A DNA stretch of 63,589 nucleotides, filler included, from an uncultured bacterium (GTDB lineage: Bacteria > CAZDME01 > JAYEMH01): assembly GCA_964506785.1 (NCBI GenBank). It is 3 parts of 3 records of this genome, joined end to end, with 100 filler letters (N's around TTAATTAATTAA, not from the genome) between each part and the next. Parts side by side here need not be neighbours in the genome. Positions count along the whole stretch, not along the records: positions 1 to 21,773 come from CAZDME010000017.1; 2 more parts are not named here. The stretch is one strand, 5' to 3'. The translations under genes were made by a program, and so were the position numbers. The notes below the pieces were generated by a model. The model saw only the letters and a program-made list of their open reading frames with translations. It made no database searches and was not told the origin of the DNA. How positions within the stretch are numbered: position 1 is the first letter of the stretch; every line of letters starts with the position of its first letter. Positions 9,490 through 20,300 of this stretch are shown piece by piece.

Positions 9490-9651
9490 GGAGTCGATAA
9501 AGGCAAACCTGTCGAAAGATAGAGGCGCAAAGTTACAGGCCTAAGTTACTGACTGATGGCTACAGCTAACTTGCCCCCGAAGGAAGAGATTGGGGTAAAA
9601 CCAGAAGGTGGCTTAGAACAGGACCAGTAATAGGGCAGCTGGACTGCCGAT
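9490..9651 (+). ncRNA. c-di-GMP-I (GEMM-I) riboswitch with about 70-80 nt insertion in P3
   Basis: CG-N5-GGCAAAC-CTGTC-GAAA-GATAG..GCGCAAAG..GGCCTAAG[TTACTG...CAGTAA]TAGG...TGCCGA; G20 and C92 equivalents present. Confidence 0.85.
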
Positions 9652-12003: not shown

Positions 12004-13310
12004 TGGTTAAGCTTTCCGATATTATTAAAAAACAGGTTAAGGCCCAAAAAGAAAAACTAGCGGCGCAAAAAGAGAAAACAACCGAGGAAACCCCGCCTTC
12101 AGCAAAAATTTCCGCACCTTCCCGTTCTTCGCTAAGAATTTCTGAAACGGTAAAAAATAAAGAAATTTCCAGGAAAACCCTGCCGTATAGAGAGGCCGGC
12201 CTTAATCAGGTAAGAATATCTGAAAAAATAAAAGAAAAAATCAGTCAGAATCCCAAAGAGAAAAAAGAACCTTTCAGGGTTCATCTCTCCGGGCCGATAA
12301 AAGAAGGTGATAAGGAAAGACAAAAGGCCTATAAAGAGGTAGAAGCAAAAATCAGCGCTTTCCGTCTGGCTCAAATCGTTCGCGAACGAGAACAAGCAGA
12401 TGAATCCCCGGGGAAATTTTATGAAGAGTCCTTGAAAAAAATTTTAGTTTTCTGGGAGAGGCTGGAGAGAAAAGAAAATCTGGATTTTAGCCCGCTTAAA
12501 GAAATAGCTGCTTTGTTTCATAAAGCTTTAAAAAATAGTCCGGCCATTTTAGCCAATTTGGCAAAGGACTATCCAGCCGATAATTACCTTCCCTATCATT
12601 CGCTCAATGTAGGTCTTGTTGCCGTTGCTTTGGGATTGGGGCTACAATGGGGTGGCGAGCGTTTAGAGGATTTGGCTCTGGCGGCTCTTCTACATGATAT
12701 CGGGATGAATGAGATTCCTAAAGAGATTTATTTAAAGAGAGAGTTTCTTAAAGGCAATGAGCGAATCAGAATCAATGAGCACCCAAAAAATAGTGTGCAA
12801 ATGATTGAAAAAGCCGGTTCTTTCGATGAAAACGTTACCAGGATTGTCTTTCAGCATCACGAACGTTCCAACGGTCAGGGCTATCCGCAAAGGCTGCAAG
12901 AAAAAGATATTCATCCCGGGGCCAGAATTGTCGGCCTGGCGGATACCTTTGAAGCCATCACTCATCCCCGTCTATATCATAAAGTCCGGCTTCCCTATGA
13001 TGCTTTAAGCGAACTCATTGACCAAAAAAAAGGCGAATTTGATAAAATTGTTTTAAAAGCTCTTATCCAGGAGATAACTTTTTATCCCCTGGGAAGTTTT
13101 GTTGAACTTAATACCGGAGAAGTTGCCCTGGTAGAACGGACTCTGGTAGAGTATCCCACCCGGCCTAAAGTTAAAGTGCTGATAAGCGAAGGCGGGGAGA
13201 AGCTTGACCCTCCCCGGGAAGTTAACCTTCATCAAGAAAGACTCCTTTATATTCAAAGACCTATTTCTGCCCCGGTTGGAACGGAGAAAAGTCCAGCTTT
13301 CCCCATTTAG
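12003..13310 (+). CDS. HD-GYP domain c-di-GMP phosphodiesterase with long charged N-terminus
   Basis: HSLNV, LLHDIG, HHERSNGQGYP, ADTFEAIT..R. Confidence 0.9.
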   Translation: MVKLSDIIKKQVKAQKEKLAAQKEKTTEETPPSAKISAPSRSSLRISETVKNKEISRKTLPYREAGLNQVRISEKIKEKISQNPKEKKEPFRVHLSGPIKEGDKERQKAYKEVEAKISAFRLAQIVREREQADESPGKFYEESLKKILVFWERLERKENLDFSPLKEIAALFHKALKNSPAILANLAKDYPADNYLPYHSLNVGLVAVALGLGLQWGGERLEDLALAALLHDIGMNEIPKEIYLKREFLKGNERIRINEHPKNSVQMIEKAGSFDENVTRIVFQHHERSNGQGYPQRLQEKDIHPGARIVGLADTFEAITHPRLYHKVRLPYDALSELIDQKKGEFDKIVLKALIQEITFYPLGSFVELNTGEVALVERTLVEYPTRPKVKVLISEGGEKLDPPREVNLHQERLLYIQRPISAPVGTEKSPAFPI

Positions 13311-13398
13311 CATGCTATATTTGTGCCTATGCGGCGCAAAAGGGATGTTCCTCAATACAATTCTTTTCCCTCTTACTCTCTAAATAGTATTTATCGTT

Positions 13399-14604
13399 AT
13401 GAGTGAAAATTCAGAACTTACCGGGATTGTCCTGGCAGTTAAAATCAAAGTGCTGCATATTGTCACCAGATTAGGCCCTGGGGGAGTTACCGAAACCCTT
13501 AGGGCTTTATCTAAATATGTAAATAAAGGAGCATTTGAATTCTTTTTTGTTTCCGGCCTGGAAAATGATTTGAAATTAGACAAATCTAAAAAGGCCATAG
13601 CCGGAGGGATGAATTTAAAAATTATTCCCGGATTGAAGAGAAATATTAATCCCTGGAGCGACCTTTTAAGTTTAATCAGTTTATATCTTTTTATAAAAAA
13701 AGGTAATTTTGATATTGTCCATACCCATACTTCAAAGGCAGGCTTCCTGGGAAGGATTGCCGCCCGTCTGGCAAAGGTTCCGGTAACAATCCATCAGCCG
13801 CACGGTCATGTCTTTAAAGGAATGTTTGATTTTTTTACTACCAGGCTCTTTATCTTTCTTGAGAAAACAGCCGCTTTAATTACCGATAAAATTATTACCG
13901 TAACCCGGCTTGGCAAAGAAGAACATATCCGCTATGGCATTGCCTCTCCGGATAAATTTATAGTTATTCCCAGCGGGATAGATTTAGAAAGATTCTTAAA
14001 AGTAGAAGTTGATATAAAAAAGGGAAGAAGAGATTTAGGGATTGAAAATGAATATCCAATCGTCGGGACAGTAGCTCATCTGGTAAAGCGAAAAGGCTAT
14101 TTATATTTACTTAAAGCCATTTCCCAGGTTAAGAAAATTCATTCTAAAATAAAGGTTCTTATTGTCGGCGAAGGTGCTCTCCGTCCGCATTTAGAAAAAC
14201 AGGTCAAAAAAATGGGGCTGGAGAGAAATTTTCTTTTCCTGGGAGAAAGAGAAGATGTAGAGGTCATTTATCCGCTTTTAGATTTATTCGTTCTTTCCTC
14301 AGTCAACGAAGGGATGGGCCGGGTTTTGATTGAAGCCATGGCTTCCGGGAGGCCGGTGGCAGCGGCCAGGATTATGGGAATACCGGAGCTGGTAATAGAC
14401 GGCCTGACGGGGAGATTGGCTTCCCCTAAAGATTCGGATGCCCTGGCAGAAGCAATAATTGATTTGCTGGGCGATAAAGAGAAATTAAGTAAGATGGGGC
14501 TAGCCGCAAAGAAAAAAGTAGAGGCATCTTCGCAATTTGACGATAAAGTAATGGTAAAAAGAATTGAAAGCCTGTATCAAGAGCTTACCAAGAGTATTTT
14601 TTAA
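13399..14604 (+). CDS. GT4 family glycosyltransferase (start uncertain)
   Basis: HTHTSKAG and EGMGRVLIEAMA. Confidence 0.92.
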   Translation: MSENSELTGIVLAVKIKVLHIVTRLGPGGVTETLRALSKYVNKGAFEFFFVSGLENDLKLDKSKKAIAGGMNLKIIPGLKRNINPWSDLLSLISLYLFIKKGNFDIVHTHTSKAGFLGRIAARLAKVPVTIHQPHGHVFKGMFDFFTTRLFIFLEKTAALITDKIITVTRLGKEEHIRYGIASPDKFIVIPSGIDLERFLKVEVDIKKGRRDLGIENEYPIVGTVAHLVKRKGYLYLLKAISQVKKIHSKIKVLIVGEGALRPHLEKQVKKMGLERNFLFLGEREDVEVIYPLLDLFVLSSVNEGMGRVLIEAMASGRPVAAARIMGIPELVIDGLTGRLASPKDSDALAEAIIDLLGDKEKLSKMGLAAKKKVEASSQFDDKVMVKRIESLYQELTKSIF

Positions 14605-14712
14605 TTTTTTTAAGTTGATTTTTATTCAGGGATATATTAGTATTATAAAGAGAGCTAGTCTGATTTGGGAAATAATTTTTAAAAATATAAGAAGAAATCA
14701 ACCAAGAAGGGG

Positions 14713-15357
14713 GTGAAAATGGCTAAAGGAGAAAGAACTAACCGTTTGAAAATTCGCCTGATTGGCATCGCCGTAATCTGTATTATAATAGTGACGGCAG
14801 CCATTATCGTTAAAGCGGCTGATGTCGAGGTTAAACTTAACAGTAGCGACGGTTCTACCTATTTTGAAATACAGGATTCTGGCGGCTCAGGTGTTTTTAC
14901 CGTGGATTCTGACGGGAACGTTGCTATCGGGACGACAGATCCGGGCAGCTACGCCCTCTATGTTAGTGGTGATACTTACATTAACGGTGATTTCACCGTA
15001 GATGCCGGGCATACTAAATCTTCTGCGGTCAATACATCCAAGGGCAAGGTCCGTTTTTATTCGATAGAAGCGCCTGAAGTAAGGGTGGAAGATTTTGGGA
15101 CGGCTCAACTGGTAAATGGAGAAGCAAAGGTTAAGATAGATTCTCTTTTTAGAGAAGGGATATCTGATAAGGAGGAATATCAGGTGTTTGTTGCTTTACT
15201 TGATGATTGCAACGGCGTTTATATCGCCAAGAAATCTCCCAATCATTTTACCGTAAAAGAGATTAAGGATGGCAAAAGTTCCTCTCGTTTTGAATGGAGA
15301 ATTATCGGCAAGGTAAAGGGTCTTGAAGATAGAAGAATGGAGAAGGTAAAAAAATAA
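14713..15357 (+). CDS. secreted protein with GNVxIGTTxP repeat and phage-tail-fibre-like C-terminal domain
   Basis: signal peptide ending IIVKA; GNVAIGTTDP; YSIEAPEVRVEDFGTAQLVNGEAKVKID...YQVF...FEWRIIG. Confidence 0.55.
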   Translation: MKMAKGERTNRLKIRLIGIAVICIIIVTAAIIVKAADVEVKLNSSDGSTYFEIQDSGGSGVFTVDSDGNVAIGTTDPGSYALYVSGDTYINGDFTVDAGHTKSSAVNTSKGKVRFYSIEAPEVRVEDFGTAQLVNGEAKVKIDSLFREGISDKEEYQVFVALLDDCNGVYIAKKSPNHFTVKEIKDGKSSSRFEWRIIGKVKGLEDRRMEKVKK

Positions 15358-15373
15358 GCCGGCAGGTTTTTAG

Positions 15374-16834
15374 TTAATCTGCCCGCTTGACTATAAATAA
15401 ATCTATGGCTGTAATTCCTATGAGGAAGGCAAATATTTTTTTTATCAGGCGGCCGCTTAAAAGCGGAAGAGGTAGCTTAATTTTTTTTGCCCGGGTTTGA
15501 TTTTCTAAGATGTAGATGTTAAATCTTTGGTCTCCTTTTTTTAAAAATTTATAGTTTTTAACCGGATTTTGACTTACTGCCAGGAGAGCACCCTGGTTAG
15601 GATTATTGGTTGTAGAACGGTAGCTGAGGGCGGAAAGAAAACATCTCGATTTGAAATCGGTATTTATGTAGACAAAATCGCCTTCAGAGGTGTTCTTTTT
15701 GATAATCCGGGCAATCTGAATTATCGATTTTTCCGGTAGGAGCAGAGAATATTTTTTCAACATAGAACTTTTTGCAAATAGAAGGTAAGTTAAAGAAGCC
15801 GTGGATACAAGAAGGAAACAAAGGATAAAGGCAGATTTAACTATTGTTTTTTTGGATTTTTTTTCAATAAATAGATAGATTTTTTCGAGGAAACAGGCGC
15901 TTAACATGGAAAGGGGCAGAAGGCAGGCTGCTTTCCAGTATCTTGTCAGCCAGGCCAAAGGGATGAATGCCAAAAAGCAAGAAGGAAGCATCAAATAACT
16001 GCCTTTCTTTTTATAACTCAGGAATATTCCCGGCAGGGCTAATATTTCTAAATAGAGCCATTTAGAATATTTCAAGGGGTTTAAATTGGAAAGTGAGAGG
16101 TTAAAAGAAACCCCGAGATTGTTTATATAAAGATGGAAAATTTTAATTCGCTTCAGGATTATTATTGAAAGAGGCAGGCTTAAAAGGGCTATTGCCCCTA
16201 ATATAAGAAACAGTGGTTTGCGGTCTTTTTTAGAATGAAGGGCATAAATAAAAAGAAAAAGAAGGCTTAGGCTTCCTATTAGATGGGTGGAAAGACAGAG
16301 CAAACTGAGCAGGCCGGCGGTCAAATAGTTCTTCTTTGCCAGGGATAAGAATATCAGAGGAAAAATTAGAAATACCAGGCCGGCGGGGGAATTAGCCAGG
16401 CTAAAGTTCATCCATATCGGAATGCTTAAAAGGATTACTAAAGAAAAAAAAGCGATTCTTGGGTTAAAAACTGTTTTTAAAGAAAACCAGAAGGCCAAAA
16501 TGGAAAGGATGAAGATAATCCAGGGGAAAAATTTTCCTAAAGTAAGGGCATCTAATCCTGAAGAAAGAAGCAAATATCCGATTGTATGAAAAAAAGGCAG
16601 ATAACGCTGAGCCTGCCAGCCGGGAGCGGCAAGCCAGAAATCGGTAATCGTCAACCCGCCGGCGCGTTCGAAGCCGACCATGGTGGATAAATGAAAGGCT
16701 GGTTCATACATGTTGAAGTATAGGGGATAACGCCATTGCCAGTAAAAAAAGGTTAAGATGGCGGCCAAACAGATAACCGTTAGAGACAGAATATTGAATA
16801 TTTTTTTAGCCCCTGTGGCATTTGCGGCTTCCAT
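15374..16834 (-). CDS. polytopic membrane protein, probable GT-C-like glycosyltransferase
   Basis: many TM helices; EPAFH and YLPFFH loop motifs; promoter spacing favours ATG 16834. Confidence 0.55.
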   Translation of the reverse strand: MEAANATGAKKIFNILSLTVICLAAILTFFYWQWRYPLYFNMYEPAFHLSTMVGFERAGGLTITDFWLAAPGWQAQRYLPFFHTIGYLLLSSGLDALTLGKFFPWIIFILSILAFWFSLKTVFNPRIAFFSLVILLSIPIWMNFSLANSPAGLVFLIFPLIFLSLAKKNYLTAGLLSLLCLSTHLIGSLSLLFLFIYALHSKKDRKPLFLILGAIALLSLPLSIIILKRIKIFHLYINNLGVSFNLSLSNLNPLKYSKWLYLEILALPGIFLSYKKKGSYLMLPSCFLAFIPLAWLTRYWKAACLLPLSMLSACFLEKIYLFIEKKSKKTIVKSAFILCFLLVSTASLTYLLFAKSSMLKKYSLLLPEKSIIQIARIIKKNTSEGDFVYINTDFKSRCFLSALSYRSTTNNPNQGALLAVSQNPVKNYKFLKKGDQRFNIYILENQTRAKKIKLPLPLLSGRLIKKIFAFLIGITAIDLFIVKRAD

Positions 16835-16841
16835 GTCATAT

Positions 16842-16870
16842 ATGATAGTAAAATTGAGTCTGGAGGTCAA
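16842..16870 (-). promoter_or_regulatory. promoter giving a leaderless transcript
   Basis: TTGACC-17-TATCAT, then 7 nt to ATG 16834. Confidence 0.65.
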
Positions 16871-16974
16871 CAACAATCATTTATAGCTGAGTTTAGACCG
16901 TGGCCTTTTTCGCTGGGATGTATTCGTATTTACCCTTAAAATATGGTATAATTATTATGGTTGAAAAAGAAAGA

Positions 16975-17131
16975 GCGAAAAAGGCAAACCTCGTTAGAGA
17001 CGATTCTAATGGGGGGCGCCACGGAAGAGACAAAGGTCTCTAACGGGGCAAACTGTTCGAAAGGATAGGACGCAAAGCTTCAGAGCCTAAGCCCTGAGTG
17101 GAAACAAAGGGTAAGGCTGTCAGCTGCCGAA
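16975..17131 (+). ncRNA. c-di-GMP-I riboswitch interrupted in P2 by a palindromic insert
   Basis: CG-AAAAA-GGCAAAC[insert]GGCAAACTGTTC-GAAA-GGATAGGACGCAAAGC..GCCTAAG-CCCT..AGGG-TAAGGC..CTGCCGA; extended -10 TGGTATAAT at 16944-16952. Confidence 0.85.
16989..17048. repeat. palindromic CCTCGTTAGAGAC...GTCTCTAACGGGG element with flanking GGCAAAC duplication
   Basis: 13-bp inverted arms; GGCAAAC at 16983-16989 and 17047-17053. Confidence 0.8.
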
Positions 17132-17166
17132 AACCAGAGAAAACTGAATATTGTAGTCGAGCTGAC

Positions 17167-17200
17167 AGAAGCCTATTCTTTCAAGAATAGGCTTTCTTTC
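17167..17200 (+). terminator. intrinsic terminator (expression platform of riboswitch 2)
   Basis: AAGCCTATTCTT-tc-AAGAATAGGCTT followed by TCTTTC. Confidence 0.85.
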
Positions 17201-17303
17201 TAAAAAGCAGAAGACGGAAGGCAGAGAAAGAAAAAACTTGCACCTACGAGGTGCAAGGATTTGGGGAAATAGAAGACAGAAAGCAGAAAACAAAGGGGAT
17301 AAA

Positions 17304-20300
17304 ATGAGTAAGCGGTTTATTGGGGCAATAATATGTATTGGATTTATAATCCTAATGGCTTCTCCGGCCGAGGGAGCTTGGCTTTCTGGATGGGATAACC
17401 GGATTAAGTTAAGGATTGACAGCAGTAAGGTCGATAGTACTTTAACTAATTTTCCAGTTCTGCTCTACCTTAGCGCCGCCTCAGGCATTGGCGATGAAGA
17501 TGTCTCCTGCGTTTTTGATGAGCTCGCTTTAGATGCTAACCGGCGGAAAATAGCCGTAACCACCTCTGACGGCACTACGGAATGTTATGTAGAAATCGAG
17601 AAGTGGGATGATGCCAATGAGAAGGCCTGGCTCTGGGTCAAGGTTCCCAGTATAAGTAGTAGCTCTGACACCGACCTTTACCTTTACTACGATGTCAACC
17701 ATTTAGACAACGGTATCTATGTGGGGGATACAAATTCCACCCCGGCTGAAAGTGTCTGGGATGATAATTATGTAATGGTTCAGCATTTAGCCGATGGGGC
17801 CAGTACCTCTGCCACTTATGATAGTACTTCTAATAATAACGACGGAACAAAAAAAGGAGCCAATGAGCCGATTGAAACAAACTCTGGAAAAATTGATGAT
17901 GCTCAGGATTTTGATGGCGGGGATGATTATTTAACTACGGCGCTTGGTGGTTTACCAACTACAATGGTGGATATAACAGTTGCATTCTGGGCAAGCCCAA
18001 GCGGAACACTTGAACATGGATCTATTCTTCGGGCTGTTACTGATGATACCGCTAATAGATTAAATATACATTTCCCTTGGGATGATAGCACAATTTACTG
18101 GGATTTTGGGGATATTTCGGGGAATGGGCGTCTTACTGCAAGTTGGAATTCTGATTGGAATAATGTATGGGCATATTGGGTATTTATTTCTGAAGCGGGG
18201 GTAGGACAAAAGATATATCGAAATAACACTCTGGTAGCAAGTGATGCTAATGTAGAGTATTTTTCAAAAGGCACAAAAACTCTTGAGATAGCTAAGTATA
18301 ATGATGTTTATTGGGATGGAATTATTGATGAGTTTCGCATTTCCTCTTATCCCCGCTCTGCCGCCTGGATTAAAGCCTCCTACAATTCCGGCAATGACAG
18401 CTTTGTCACTTTTGGCGCTGCGGAAGGCCGCTCGGACTGGCTTTCCGGCTGGGACCAGCGGATTAAATTAACCGTTGATAGCACCAAGGTGGATGAAAAC
18501 TTAACTGATTTTCCGGCTCTCGTTTACCTCAGCGCCGCCTCAGGTATTGGCGATGTCGATGTCTCCTGTGTGTTTGATGAGTTGACTTCAGATGATAACC
18601 GCAAGAAAATAGCCGTAACCACCTCTGACGGCCAAACCCAGTGTTATGTAGAAATCGAGAAATGGGACGATGCCAGTGAGGAGGCCTGGCTCTGGGTTAA
18701 AATTCCTAGTGTGAGCAGTATTGGCGATAGCTATCTTTATTTATACTACGATGCTGACCATGCCGATAACACTACCTATATAGGAGATACCAACTCCACC
18801 CCGGCTGAAAATGTCTGGAATAGTCATTTTAAAGGGGTATGGCATTTGGATGAGACTACCGGCTCCTATTATGATTCTACAGACAGTAATTATGACGGCA
18901 CTCTTACTGACGCTGATACGGATAGTACTAGGGGCGCTACGGGTAAAATAAATGGGGCGATTGATTTAAACGGAGATGCTGATTATATTGACTGCGGTGA
19001 TGTAGCTGAAGTAGATAGTGTTTATGCCCTTACCTATGAGGTGTGGATGAAGGACGGCGCAACTAACGCTCTGATTTCTAAATATACAGACGATAACAGC
19101 AAAGCAAGTATCTACAATGCATCCGGCGATGCGCTTTATTGGAGTCTTACTGATGGTTCCCCTGGTTCCCCTAGCTACGGTACGAGTGCTGTATTAACCG
19201 GTGAGCATTATCTGGCAATGGCTTATGATGGGTTGCAAACCGGAAACTCAAATATACTAAAGGGATATGTGGATGGTGAGGAGGTAACTTTGTCTTTTAC
19301 CGGTACAATTCCGGCACTGACCGCAAACCATAGTGAAAATCTCTATTTAGGAAAGCAGGCAGCAGCTTATACCGATGGCATCATTGACGAAGTCCGCATT
19401 TCCTCTTCTCCCCGCTCGGCCGCCTGGATTAAAGCCTCATATAACTCCGGCAATGACAGCTTTATCACCTTTACCGGCACGGCAGAATCCCCGCCGAGTG
19501 CATTTTCCGGCTGGGATAACCGGATTAAATTAACTATTGACAGCAGTAAAATTGATTCTGATTTAACTAATTTCCCGGTTTTGATTCATATTAGTTCCGC
19601 CTCAGGCATAACTGATTCTGATGCCAGCCGGGTTTTTGACGAATTGACTTCAGATGACAACCGTAAGAAAATAGCCGTAACCACCTCTGACGGCCAAACC
19701 CAGTGCTTCGTAGAAATTGAGAAGTGGGATGATGCCAGTGAAGAGGCCTGGCTCTGGGTTAAGGTCCCGGCGATAAGCAGCACCAACGATACTGACCTTT
19801 ACCTCTATTATGATGCTGACCACCCTAATAACACCTACTATGTAGGCGACAGCGGCTCGATGACAGATATCTGGGGAACTGAATACGTTATGGTTCAGCA
19901 TTTAGAAGAAACCAGCGGCACCCATTATGATTCCACTTTTCGTGATAACGATTCAAGCGTCGTTTCGGTAACTACCCAGGGCTCGGCAACCGGAAAAATC
20001 GATGGTTCAGATGAATTTGCCGCTGGTAAATATATCGATTGCGGAACTGACACCAGTCTTGATTTTGCTGGGGCCTTTACGGTAAGTGCCTGGGTAAAAC
20101 CGGATACCCTGATAAATTATGGCGGTATTGTCAGTAAGGTTATTTCTGGCCGGACCGGAACCTATTCATATATGTTAGTCTGCCATAATGATGGGACTAT
20201 AGGCGCGTGGGGTAGTAGTACCTGGAACTTTTCGACTGATGCCGGTATTACCGCCGGCAACTGGTATCACCTTACATGGAAACTTACCGGAGGCAACATC

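Follow-up and report, generated by a model that had tools for sequence, protein, structure and literature searches.

The closest described counterpart of the RNA considered here is the Vc2-type c-di-GMP-I riboswitch (Rfam RF01051), exemplified by Vc2 of Vibrio cholerae. In the available text of PMC11705072, the Vc2 pairs are given as C13-G94, G14-C93, G21-C46 and C22-G45, the ligand pairs with C92, and a shorter P1a results in weaker binding. On the basis of these pairs, the heptamer GGCAAAC corresponds to G20-C26, in agreement with the numbering used in the original prediction for this locus, and P1 needs a dinucleotide, positioned 4-5 nt 5' of G20, that pairs with the two bases following C92.

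At this locus such an aptamer is combined with a mobile element, and a search of the main texts of the literature for mobile-element insertions in riboswitches yielded nothing relevant. Barrick and Breaker are said to have described, in 2007, "variable insertions" in riboswitch aptamers. Co-transcribed palindromic MITEs include the Rickettsia palindromic elements, the Correia elements of Neisseria and the enterobacterial ERIC sequences, and REP/RAYT repeats are not known to carry a target duplication.

The window, by which we denote the whole stretch of DNA analysed (63,589 nucleotides, filler included), belongs to the genome of an uncultured bacterium, labelled G000 below, and G001 and G002 denote the only two genomes of the same GTDB family. 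Riboswitch 2 of this window represents a natural case of a mobile element lodged not in a tolerant loop of a riboswitch but in its ligand-binding core, and fixed in every population sampled. Our explanation as a whole, in which a mini palindromic element has inserted in the riboswitch strand, is probable, and for the insertion together with the family assignment we would use a stronger term, highly probable. Whether the switch would still respond to c-di-GMP, mostly via the upstream of two possible registers, is in our judgement an even question.

Aptamer match and the two GGCAAAC strands

The heptamer GGCAAAC is present at 16983-16989 and 17047-17053 (+ strand, as for all features below unless stated), as a repeat search confirmed, on either side of an imperfect 13-nt inverted repeat with arms CCTCGTTAGAGAC (16989-17001) and GTCTCTAACGGGG (17036-17048). 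These arms are 92% complementary and their single mismatch is, at the RNA level, a G.U pair. GGCAAAC shows no enrichment across the window, with 10 matches against 9.3 expected, and the weight of the repeat derives from its context and not from its frequency.

The Rfam c-di-GMP-I model aligns in full (model positions 1-87 of 87) to positions 17037-17131 with 70.7 bits, relative to a gathering score of 35, and this is the top score among the 15 c-di-GMP-I matches of the genome, which is 91% complete at 1.38 Mb. The covariance-model alignment, supplemented by reading of the sequence, takes the downstream GGCAAAC copy as its strand, and this copy adjoins the GAAA stem (17053-68, loop 17059-62); further downstream are the closing bases G17072-C17073, the receptor stem (CCUAAG 17086-91 and UAAGG 17112-16), the C92 equivalent C17127 and the P1 3' strand at 17128-29. 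Core features of the class are present, namely the GNRA-capped stem, the receptor stem and the equivalents of C92 and of G20 (G17047 and also G16983), and all the conserved aptamer positions downstream of the element are intact. As far as the available source text on Vc2 goes, the likeness to Vc2-type riboswitches extends to the full-length match, the GAAA stem, the CCUAAG/UAAGG receptor stem, the G20 and C92 equivalents and the tail CG for P1, whereas here 64 nt separate the P1 5' strand and J1/2 from the rest, G20-C26 is present in two copies, and the strand adjoining the GAAA stem reads C, G and G at model positions 8-10, as against A, A and a in the RF01051 consensus. Judged from its sequence, riboswitch 2 belongs to the c-di-GMP-I class in both score and core features but lacks the contiguity, usual for this class, of the P1/J1-2/G20 strand with the GNRA stem.

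Fifteen c-di-GMP-I matches in 1.38 Mb constitute a very high density, and they include two tandem pairs. In G001, many aptamers (loci L042, L045 and L049-L052), which score only 31-43 bits, have a GC-rich hairpin that either sits in J2/3 or replaces the GNRA stem. In riboswitch 1 (window 9492-9651) the receptor-stem loop is enlarged by a 76-nt insertion, and a downstream stretch complementary to the P1/J1-2 strand of this same riboswitch is followed by a U run.

The P1 rule was scripted on 28 other riboswitches, 14 in G000 and 14 in G001 and G002, and 27 of these obey it. A 5' CG, AG or GG at N4-5 pairs with a tail CG or CT and the two sides covary (CG with CG; AG or GG with CT), while the single exception, L043, is a match that begins within the aptamer. 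Of the two copies in riboswitch 2, the upstream one satisfies the rule. Its P1 5' strand at 16976-16977, equivalent to C13-G14 of Vc2 in the pairs available from the source, is the sole CG at N5 before GGC that pairs with the tail C17128-G17129, and the intervening J1/2 (AAAAA, 16978-16982) is A-rich in agreement with the paralogue consensus. Neither spacing works for the downstream copy, whose CT at N5 and TA at N4 do not pair with the tail CG; it alone, however, is contiguous with the GAAA stem, from which the upstream copy is 64 nt distant. The prediction of an aptamer with two registers, in which only the upstream copy has the CG-N5 spacing for P1, as in riboswitch 1, and the GAAA stem directly follows the downstream copy alone, was therefore borne out. 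The same prediction had named conservation of the inserted helix among orthologous riboswitches as a finding that would speak against it, and the helix is absent from 28/28 other riboswitches of G000, G001 and G002.

A perfect 12-nt inverted repeat, GCCTTTTTCGCT at 16903-16914 and AGCGAAAAAGGC at 16974-16985, surrounds a promoter-like site upstream of the aptamer, and the P1/J1-2/G20-C22 strand forms its right arm. Read on the minus strand, 16875-16914 is similar to 16974-17005, with 5/300 shuffles scoring equally.

The palindromic element, its family and its target sites

The 60-nt palindrome at 16989-17048 is a member, in inverted orientation, of a multi-copy family with arms CCCCGTTAGARA and TYTCTAACGGGG. 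The left arm in the riboswitch (16989-17001) agrees with the family at 12/13 positions, with one mismatch, and the right arm (17036-17048) at 13/13. BLAST of the 86-nt region against its own genome gave no second copy, and the family was detected only when the arms were used as short motifs; paired copies then numbered 14 in G000, 13 in G001 and 4 in G002, with none for the reversed-pattern control in any of the three genomes. Family copies start with CCCC and finish with GGGG, conforming to the pattern CCC-CGTTAGARA ... TYTCTAACG-GGG, and their interiors are very unlike in both length and sequence.

A scan of one genome per species yielded at least 122 family stretches across many phyla. The matches listed include Omnitrophota, Planctomycetota, many Patescibacteria, Desulfobacteria, Nitrospirota, Elusimicrobia, Cloacimonadota, a Clostridia MAG and a Methanosarcinales MAG, and among them the 12-nt arms are conserved in lineages as distant as Patescibacteria, Planctomycetota and one archaeal MAG. 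Five further genomes carry 19, 23, 18, 3 and 35 copies, with a control of 0. For 80 loci fetched from these stretches (L077-L156), the length plus 4 is a multiple of 3 in 57 cases, and a 65-nt subclass among them has two inner hairpins with covarying stems. A two-hairpin build like that of the riboswitch copy recurs elsewhere, in L081 and the 55-nt class of genome G045, where, on either side, a degenerate inner arm is the pairing partner of the outer arm and the sequence aligns with the riboswitch copy.

Target-site duplications were assessed by comparing the 4 nt immediately outside the 12-nt arms, with the same rule applied to all 29 copies and L070 left out as a duplicate of L069. Perfect 4-nt duplications flank 18/29 copies overall (8/14 in G000 and 10/15 in its relatives G001 and G002). 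When either flank was shifted by 1-6 nt, 0-1 of the 29 remained, and flanks paired across different copies agree at 10.6%. Perfect duplications were also found for 43/80 of the fetched loci from other phyla. The duplicated tetranucleotides in L077-L156 are mostly TTTA, TAAA, TCAA or TTGA and yield a stop codon on one strand.

Under this rule the riboswitch copy gives CAAA/CAAA (16985-16988 and 17049-17052), which sets the bounds of the element at 16989-17048. The original proposal of an insertion with target-site duplication is thereby supported, but the duplication is 4 nt, CAAA, and not 7 nt. The repeated heptamer is composed of GG, CAAA and C, where the final C belongs to the element, as its first base, in the left copy and is the native C26 in the right copy. 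Thus the upstream copy consists of native G20-A25 (16983-88) and the element's first base (16989), and the downstream copy of the element's terminal GG, CAAA and native C26. Excision of the element with one CAAA produces AGCG-AAAAA-GGCAAAC followed by the GAAA stem, a canonical strand that parallels riboswitch 1 and 13 other paralogues. The element has therefore inserted into CAAA with rebuilding of GGCAAAC on both sides, because the family ends, CCCC and GGGG, fell on the native site GG-CAAA-C.

The insert is, on its sequence features, a MITE-like element of a family for whose arm strings we found no description among the listed matches from the main texts of the literature. Searches for transposases DDE_Tnp_1 and IS1380 gave 0/3 genomes each (genomes 88-91% complete), and in G000 no autonomous copy was detected in the form of paired arms with matching flanks at a distance of 300-4000 nt. 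None of the six inspected Y1_Tnp loci is adjoined by element arms, the nearest being about 1.2-1.4 kb off. Two other affiliations were considered. Element ends starting with CC and 4-5-bp duplications are reminiscent of IS1380 or piggyBac-like elements, but no IS1380 transposase was detected in the three genomes. Integron attC sites share GTTAGA/TCTAAC cores with a variable centre, and they were rejected on the grounds that the copies are dispersed with 4-nt duplications and that the core order of attC is, presumably, the opposite of that found here.

The insert is not a misassembly, a possibility raised in the original prediction, because it is carried by contigs of three studies and by two metagenome loci. 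The independent contigs X1, X3 and X5 are colinear with it through 16600-17395 or beyond, and in these contigs, where rare alleles would be hidden, no joint skips it; contigs X6 contained merely the conserved core of other riboswitches. The insert-free alleles suggested as a check were sought in the contigs of four runs and in a metagenome scan with the upstream gene, which gave two loci (L053 and L054), both with the insert, and none was found. L054 is identical to the window, whereas X5 and L053 represent a slightly different strain with an identical insert and five differences from the window in 16655-17293, none of them within 16683-17220. The suggested comparison of orthologues was likewise without result: the upstream gene has 0/2 matches in G001 and G002, which lack an orthologous locus, and a DNA search of 41 genomes, including G000, gave nothing but short repeats outside G000. 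Since X1, X3, X5, L053 and L054 are all occupied and there is no orthologous empty site among them, the insertion is deduced from the paralogues, which supply the expected empty-site sequence, and from the family features rather than from a before-and-after pair.

Leader folding and the regulated gene

A promoter-like site at 16929-16958 consists of TTTACC, an 18-nt spacer and TATTAT, with the paralogues showing, by eye, a similar spacing to their -10 boxes, and an alternative TATAAT is located at 16947-52. Transcription would then start near 16960-16966. The upstream copy would be absent from the RNA if the start lay inside or after the element.

The element alone is predicted to fold into two local hairpins, H-A (~16989-17014) and H-B (~17018-17048), at -26.3 kcal/mol (z -4.67; 0/200 shuffles as good), while folding as one long palindrome reaches only -19.5 kcal/mol. 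The palindromic character predicted for the insert thus holds for its 13-nt inverted repeat but not for its best RNA fold. In the minimum-energy fold of the leader, at -64.9 kcal/mol, H-B pairs with the downstream GGC (17047-49). Constrained folds give -57.0 kcal/mol for the downstream register and, for the upstream register with the element closed off as a branch of the A23-A25 internal loop, -54.0 kcal/mol without and -52.5 kcal/mol with the 2-bp P1. Aptamer-competent folds are accordingly placed 7.9 kcal/mol (downstream register) and 10.9-12.4 kcal/mol (upstream register) above the minimum, compared with 2.4-3.9 kcal/mol after in-silico excision, and from these gaps the insertion is predicted to make pocket formation costlier by about 5-9 kcal/mol. 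The nearest-neighbour energies, which are rough and ignore tertiary and ligand contributions, favour the downstream over the upstream register by 3-4.5 kcal/mol.

In the explanation that we favour, a miniature palindromic element entered CAAA (C22-A25) of the conserved G20-C26 strand in an otherwise canonical c-di-GMP-I riboswitch, with duplication of this tetranucleotide. It left a split aptamer, with the P1 5' strand, J1/2 and one copy of G20-A25 on the upstream side and, on the downstream side, another copy together with the GAAA stem, the receptor stem, C92 and the P1 3' strand. The RNA of the element is predicted to fold by itself into its two hairpins, the second of which pairs with the downstream GG(C). 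The ligand-competent fold would most likely use the upstream strand, the only one joined to J1/2 and P1, with the element forming an extra branch from the A23-A25 internal loop. This register is preferred because of P1/J1-2 conservation and the order of folding in transcription and not because of energy: as the RNA is made, H-B may already hold the downstream GGC before its partner, G17072-C17073, has been synthesised. The energy difference of 3-4.5 kcal/mol and the Rfam alignment of the downstream copy are points against it. As a competent fold is predicted to be costlier than before the insertion, the switch would be either desensitised or dead.

Downstream of the aptamer, the 3' strand of the aptamer (17117-25) can pair over 9 bp with 17160-68, as seen from the inverted repeat and fold prediction, and this alternative pairing probably forms part of the expression platform. 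It is followed at 17169-17201 by a terminator-like element, consisting of a perfect 12-bp hairpin (17169-94) and UCUUUCU, that is present in all predicted folds. The original prediction was that an inactive aptamer would leave the gene, there called an adhesin, constitutive; given a terminator-like hairpin in every predicted fold, constitutive expression is not a safe expectation for a dead aptamer, and this consequence does not follow. The 27-nt terminator-like hairpin (17169-17195) recurs with 96% identity in a different genus, at G001:C8:256-282. A further hairpin, TTGCACCTnnnAGGTGCAA at window 17237-17257, is a repeat with at least eight copies, two of which flank a Y1_Tnp gene (C23:7359-7598, within G000:C23:7110-7844) in a REP/RAYT-like arrangement.

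The regulated gene begins at 17304 and is cut by the contig end at 21773. It encodes a repeat protein of at least 1490 aa, at most a candidate adhesin, with four DUF2341 and three Laminin_G_3 matches, and its translation shows, by eye, a hydrophobic N-terminal segment. L053 is identical to the window over 12377-16654 and diverges sharply from 17396 on, inside this DUF2341/LamG gene, which from that position appears to be hypervariable or recombining.

Alternative readings and related systems

The rival that we take most seriously, at rather less than an even chance, is that the switch is dead: with P1/J1-2 cut off there would be no binding of c-di-GMP, the gene would be governed only by the default fold of the leader, and the aptamer would look intact as a consequence of the recency of the insertion. 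The element does lie in the most conserved strand and not in a peripheral loop, competent folds are 8-12 kcal/mol above the minimum as against 2.4-3.9 after excision, and, in the available text on Vc2 (PMC11705072), a shortened P1a weakens binding; moreover, a duplication that is still perfect and two strains that are alike over 16683-17220 fit a young insertion. Against this stand the intact conserved positions downstream with a score of 70.7 bits, the best of 15, the rebuilding of the heptamer on both sides, and the fixation of the insert in 5/5 sequences, although each of these would also be compatible with a recent death. An elaboration of the responding switch, which we consider doubtful, is that H-B serves as a built-in anti-aptamer on the downstream GGC while the upstream strand closes the pocket, and that the family persists by rebuilding the motif it interrupts. 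If so, a c-di-GMP sensor of very high affinity would have been converted into one with a high threshold, and the family may persist in functional sequences across phyla since its G-rich ends and 4-nt duplication rebuild the interrupted motif, here G20-C26.

Two further readings do without an insertion. Positions 16974-17046 could be what is left of the first member of an aptamer tandem, or could stem from partial duplication of an aptamer's 5' half, and there are tandem c-di-GMP-I aptamers in the genome (C55:7532/7647 and C7:27612/27801). RF03167 aligns 16974-17027 as P1/J1-2/GGCAAAC/hairpin/GGCGC with P3 deleted, and one constrained fold pairs GGC 16983-85 with GCC 17018-20 around H-A. The RF03167 match, however, though the best in 16940-17046, is not significant, at 10.9 bits against a gathering score of 59 (E 2.4), and the similarity between upstream and downstream parts is matched by 34/300 shuffles; on these two results we rejected this reading, which is very improbable. 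In addition, in genuine tandems the second aptamer retains a CG-N4/5 of its own, the hairpins here are fully explained by the family arms, degenerate inner arms and the CAAA duplication, and family copies with the same two-hairpin build exist outside riboswitches. Scarcely credible is the remaining reading, in which chance or faulty assembly produced the 7-nt repeat and the palindrome is just one of the usual hairpins of a leader: the frequency of GGCAAAC (10 against 9.3 expected) is what chance would give, but three contig sets and two metagenome loci agree, the reversed-pattern controls for the family arms are 0, and flanking duplications are far above their controls.

The locus as explained by insertion constitutes a ready-made experiment on how far a three-way-junction aptamer can be interrupted and on which strand of an identical pair its fold selects. 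It also exposes a failure mode of annotation, the best Rfam score of 15 having been obtained on an aligned strand without P1 and J1/2.

In comparison with the co-transcribed palindromic MITEs, namely Rickettsia palindromic elements, Correia elements and ERIC, the element is similarly short, non-coding, hairpin-forming and present in many copies, with terminal inverted repeats, target duplication and a length that is often in frame (57/80 here). It differs in that only the 12-13-nt arms are conserved, and this across phyla, with interiors that are mostly unrelated, a 4-nt duplication and no transposase found in three genomes. A REP/RAYT system occurs in the same genome, where the Y1_Tnp gene at C23:7359-7598 lies between TTGCACC...GGTGCAA hairpins, whereas the riboswitch element has other arms, has target duplications and flanks no Y1_Tnp gene. 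The "variable insertions" of riboswitch aptamers are alike in being extra hairpins within an otherwise standard aptamer, and some of them may be explained by this element family. Here, in contrast, the insert lies between A25 and C26 of the ligand-binding 5' strand and not in a terminal loop, and its origin from a mobile element is demonstrable.
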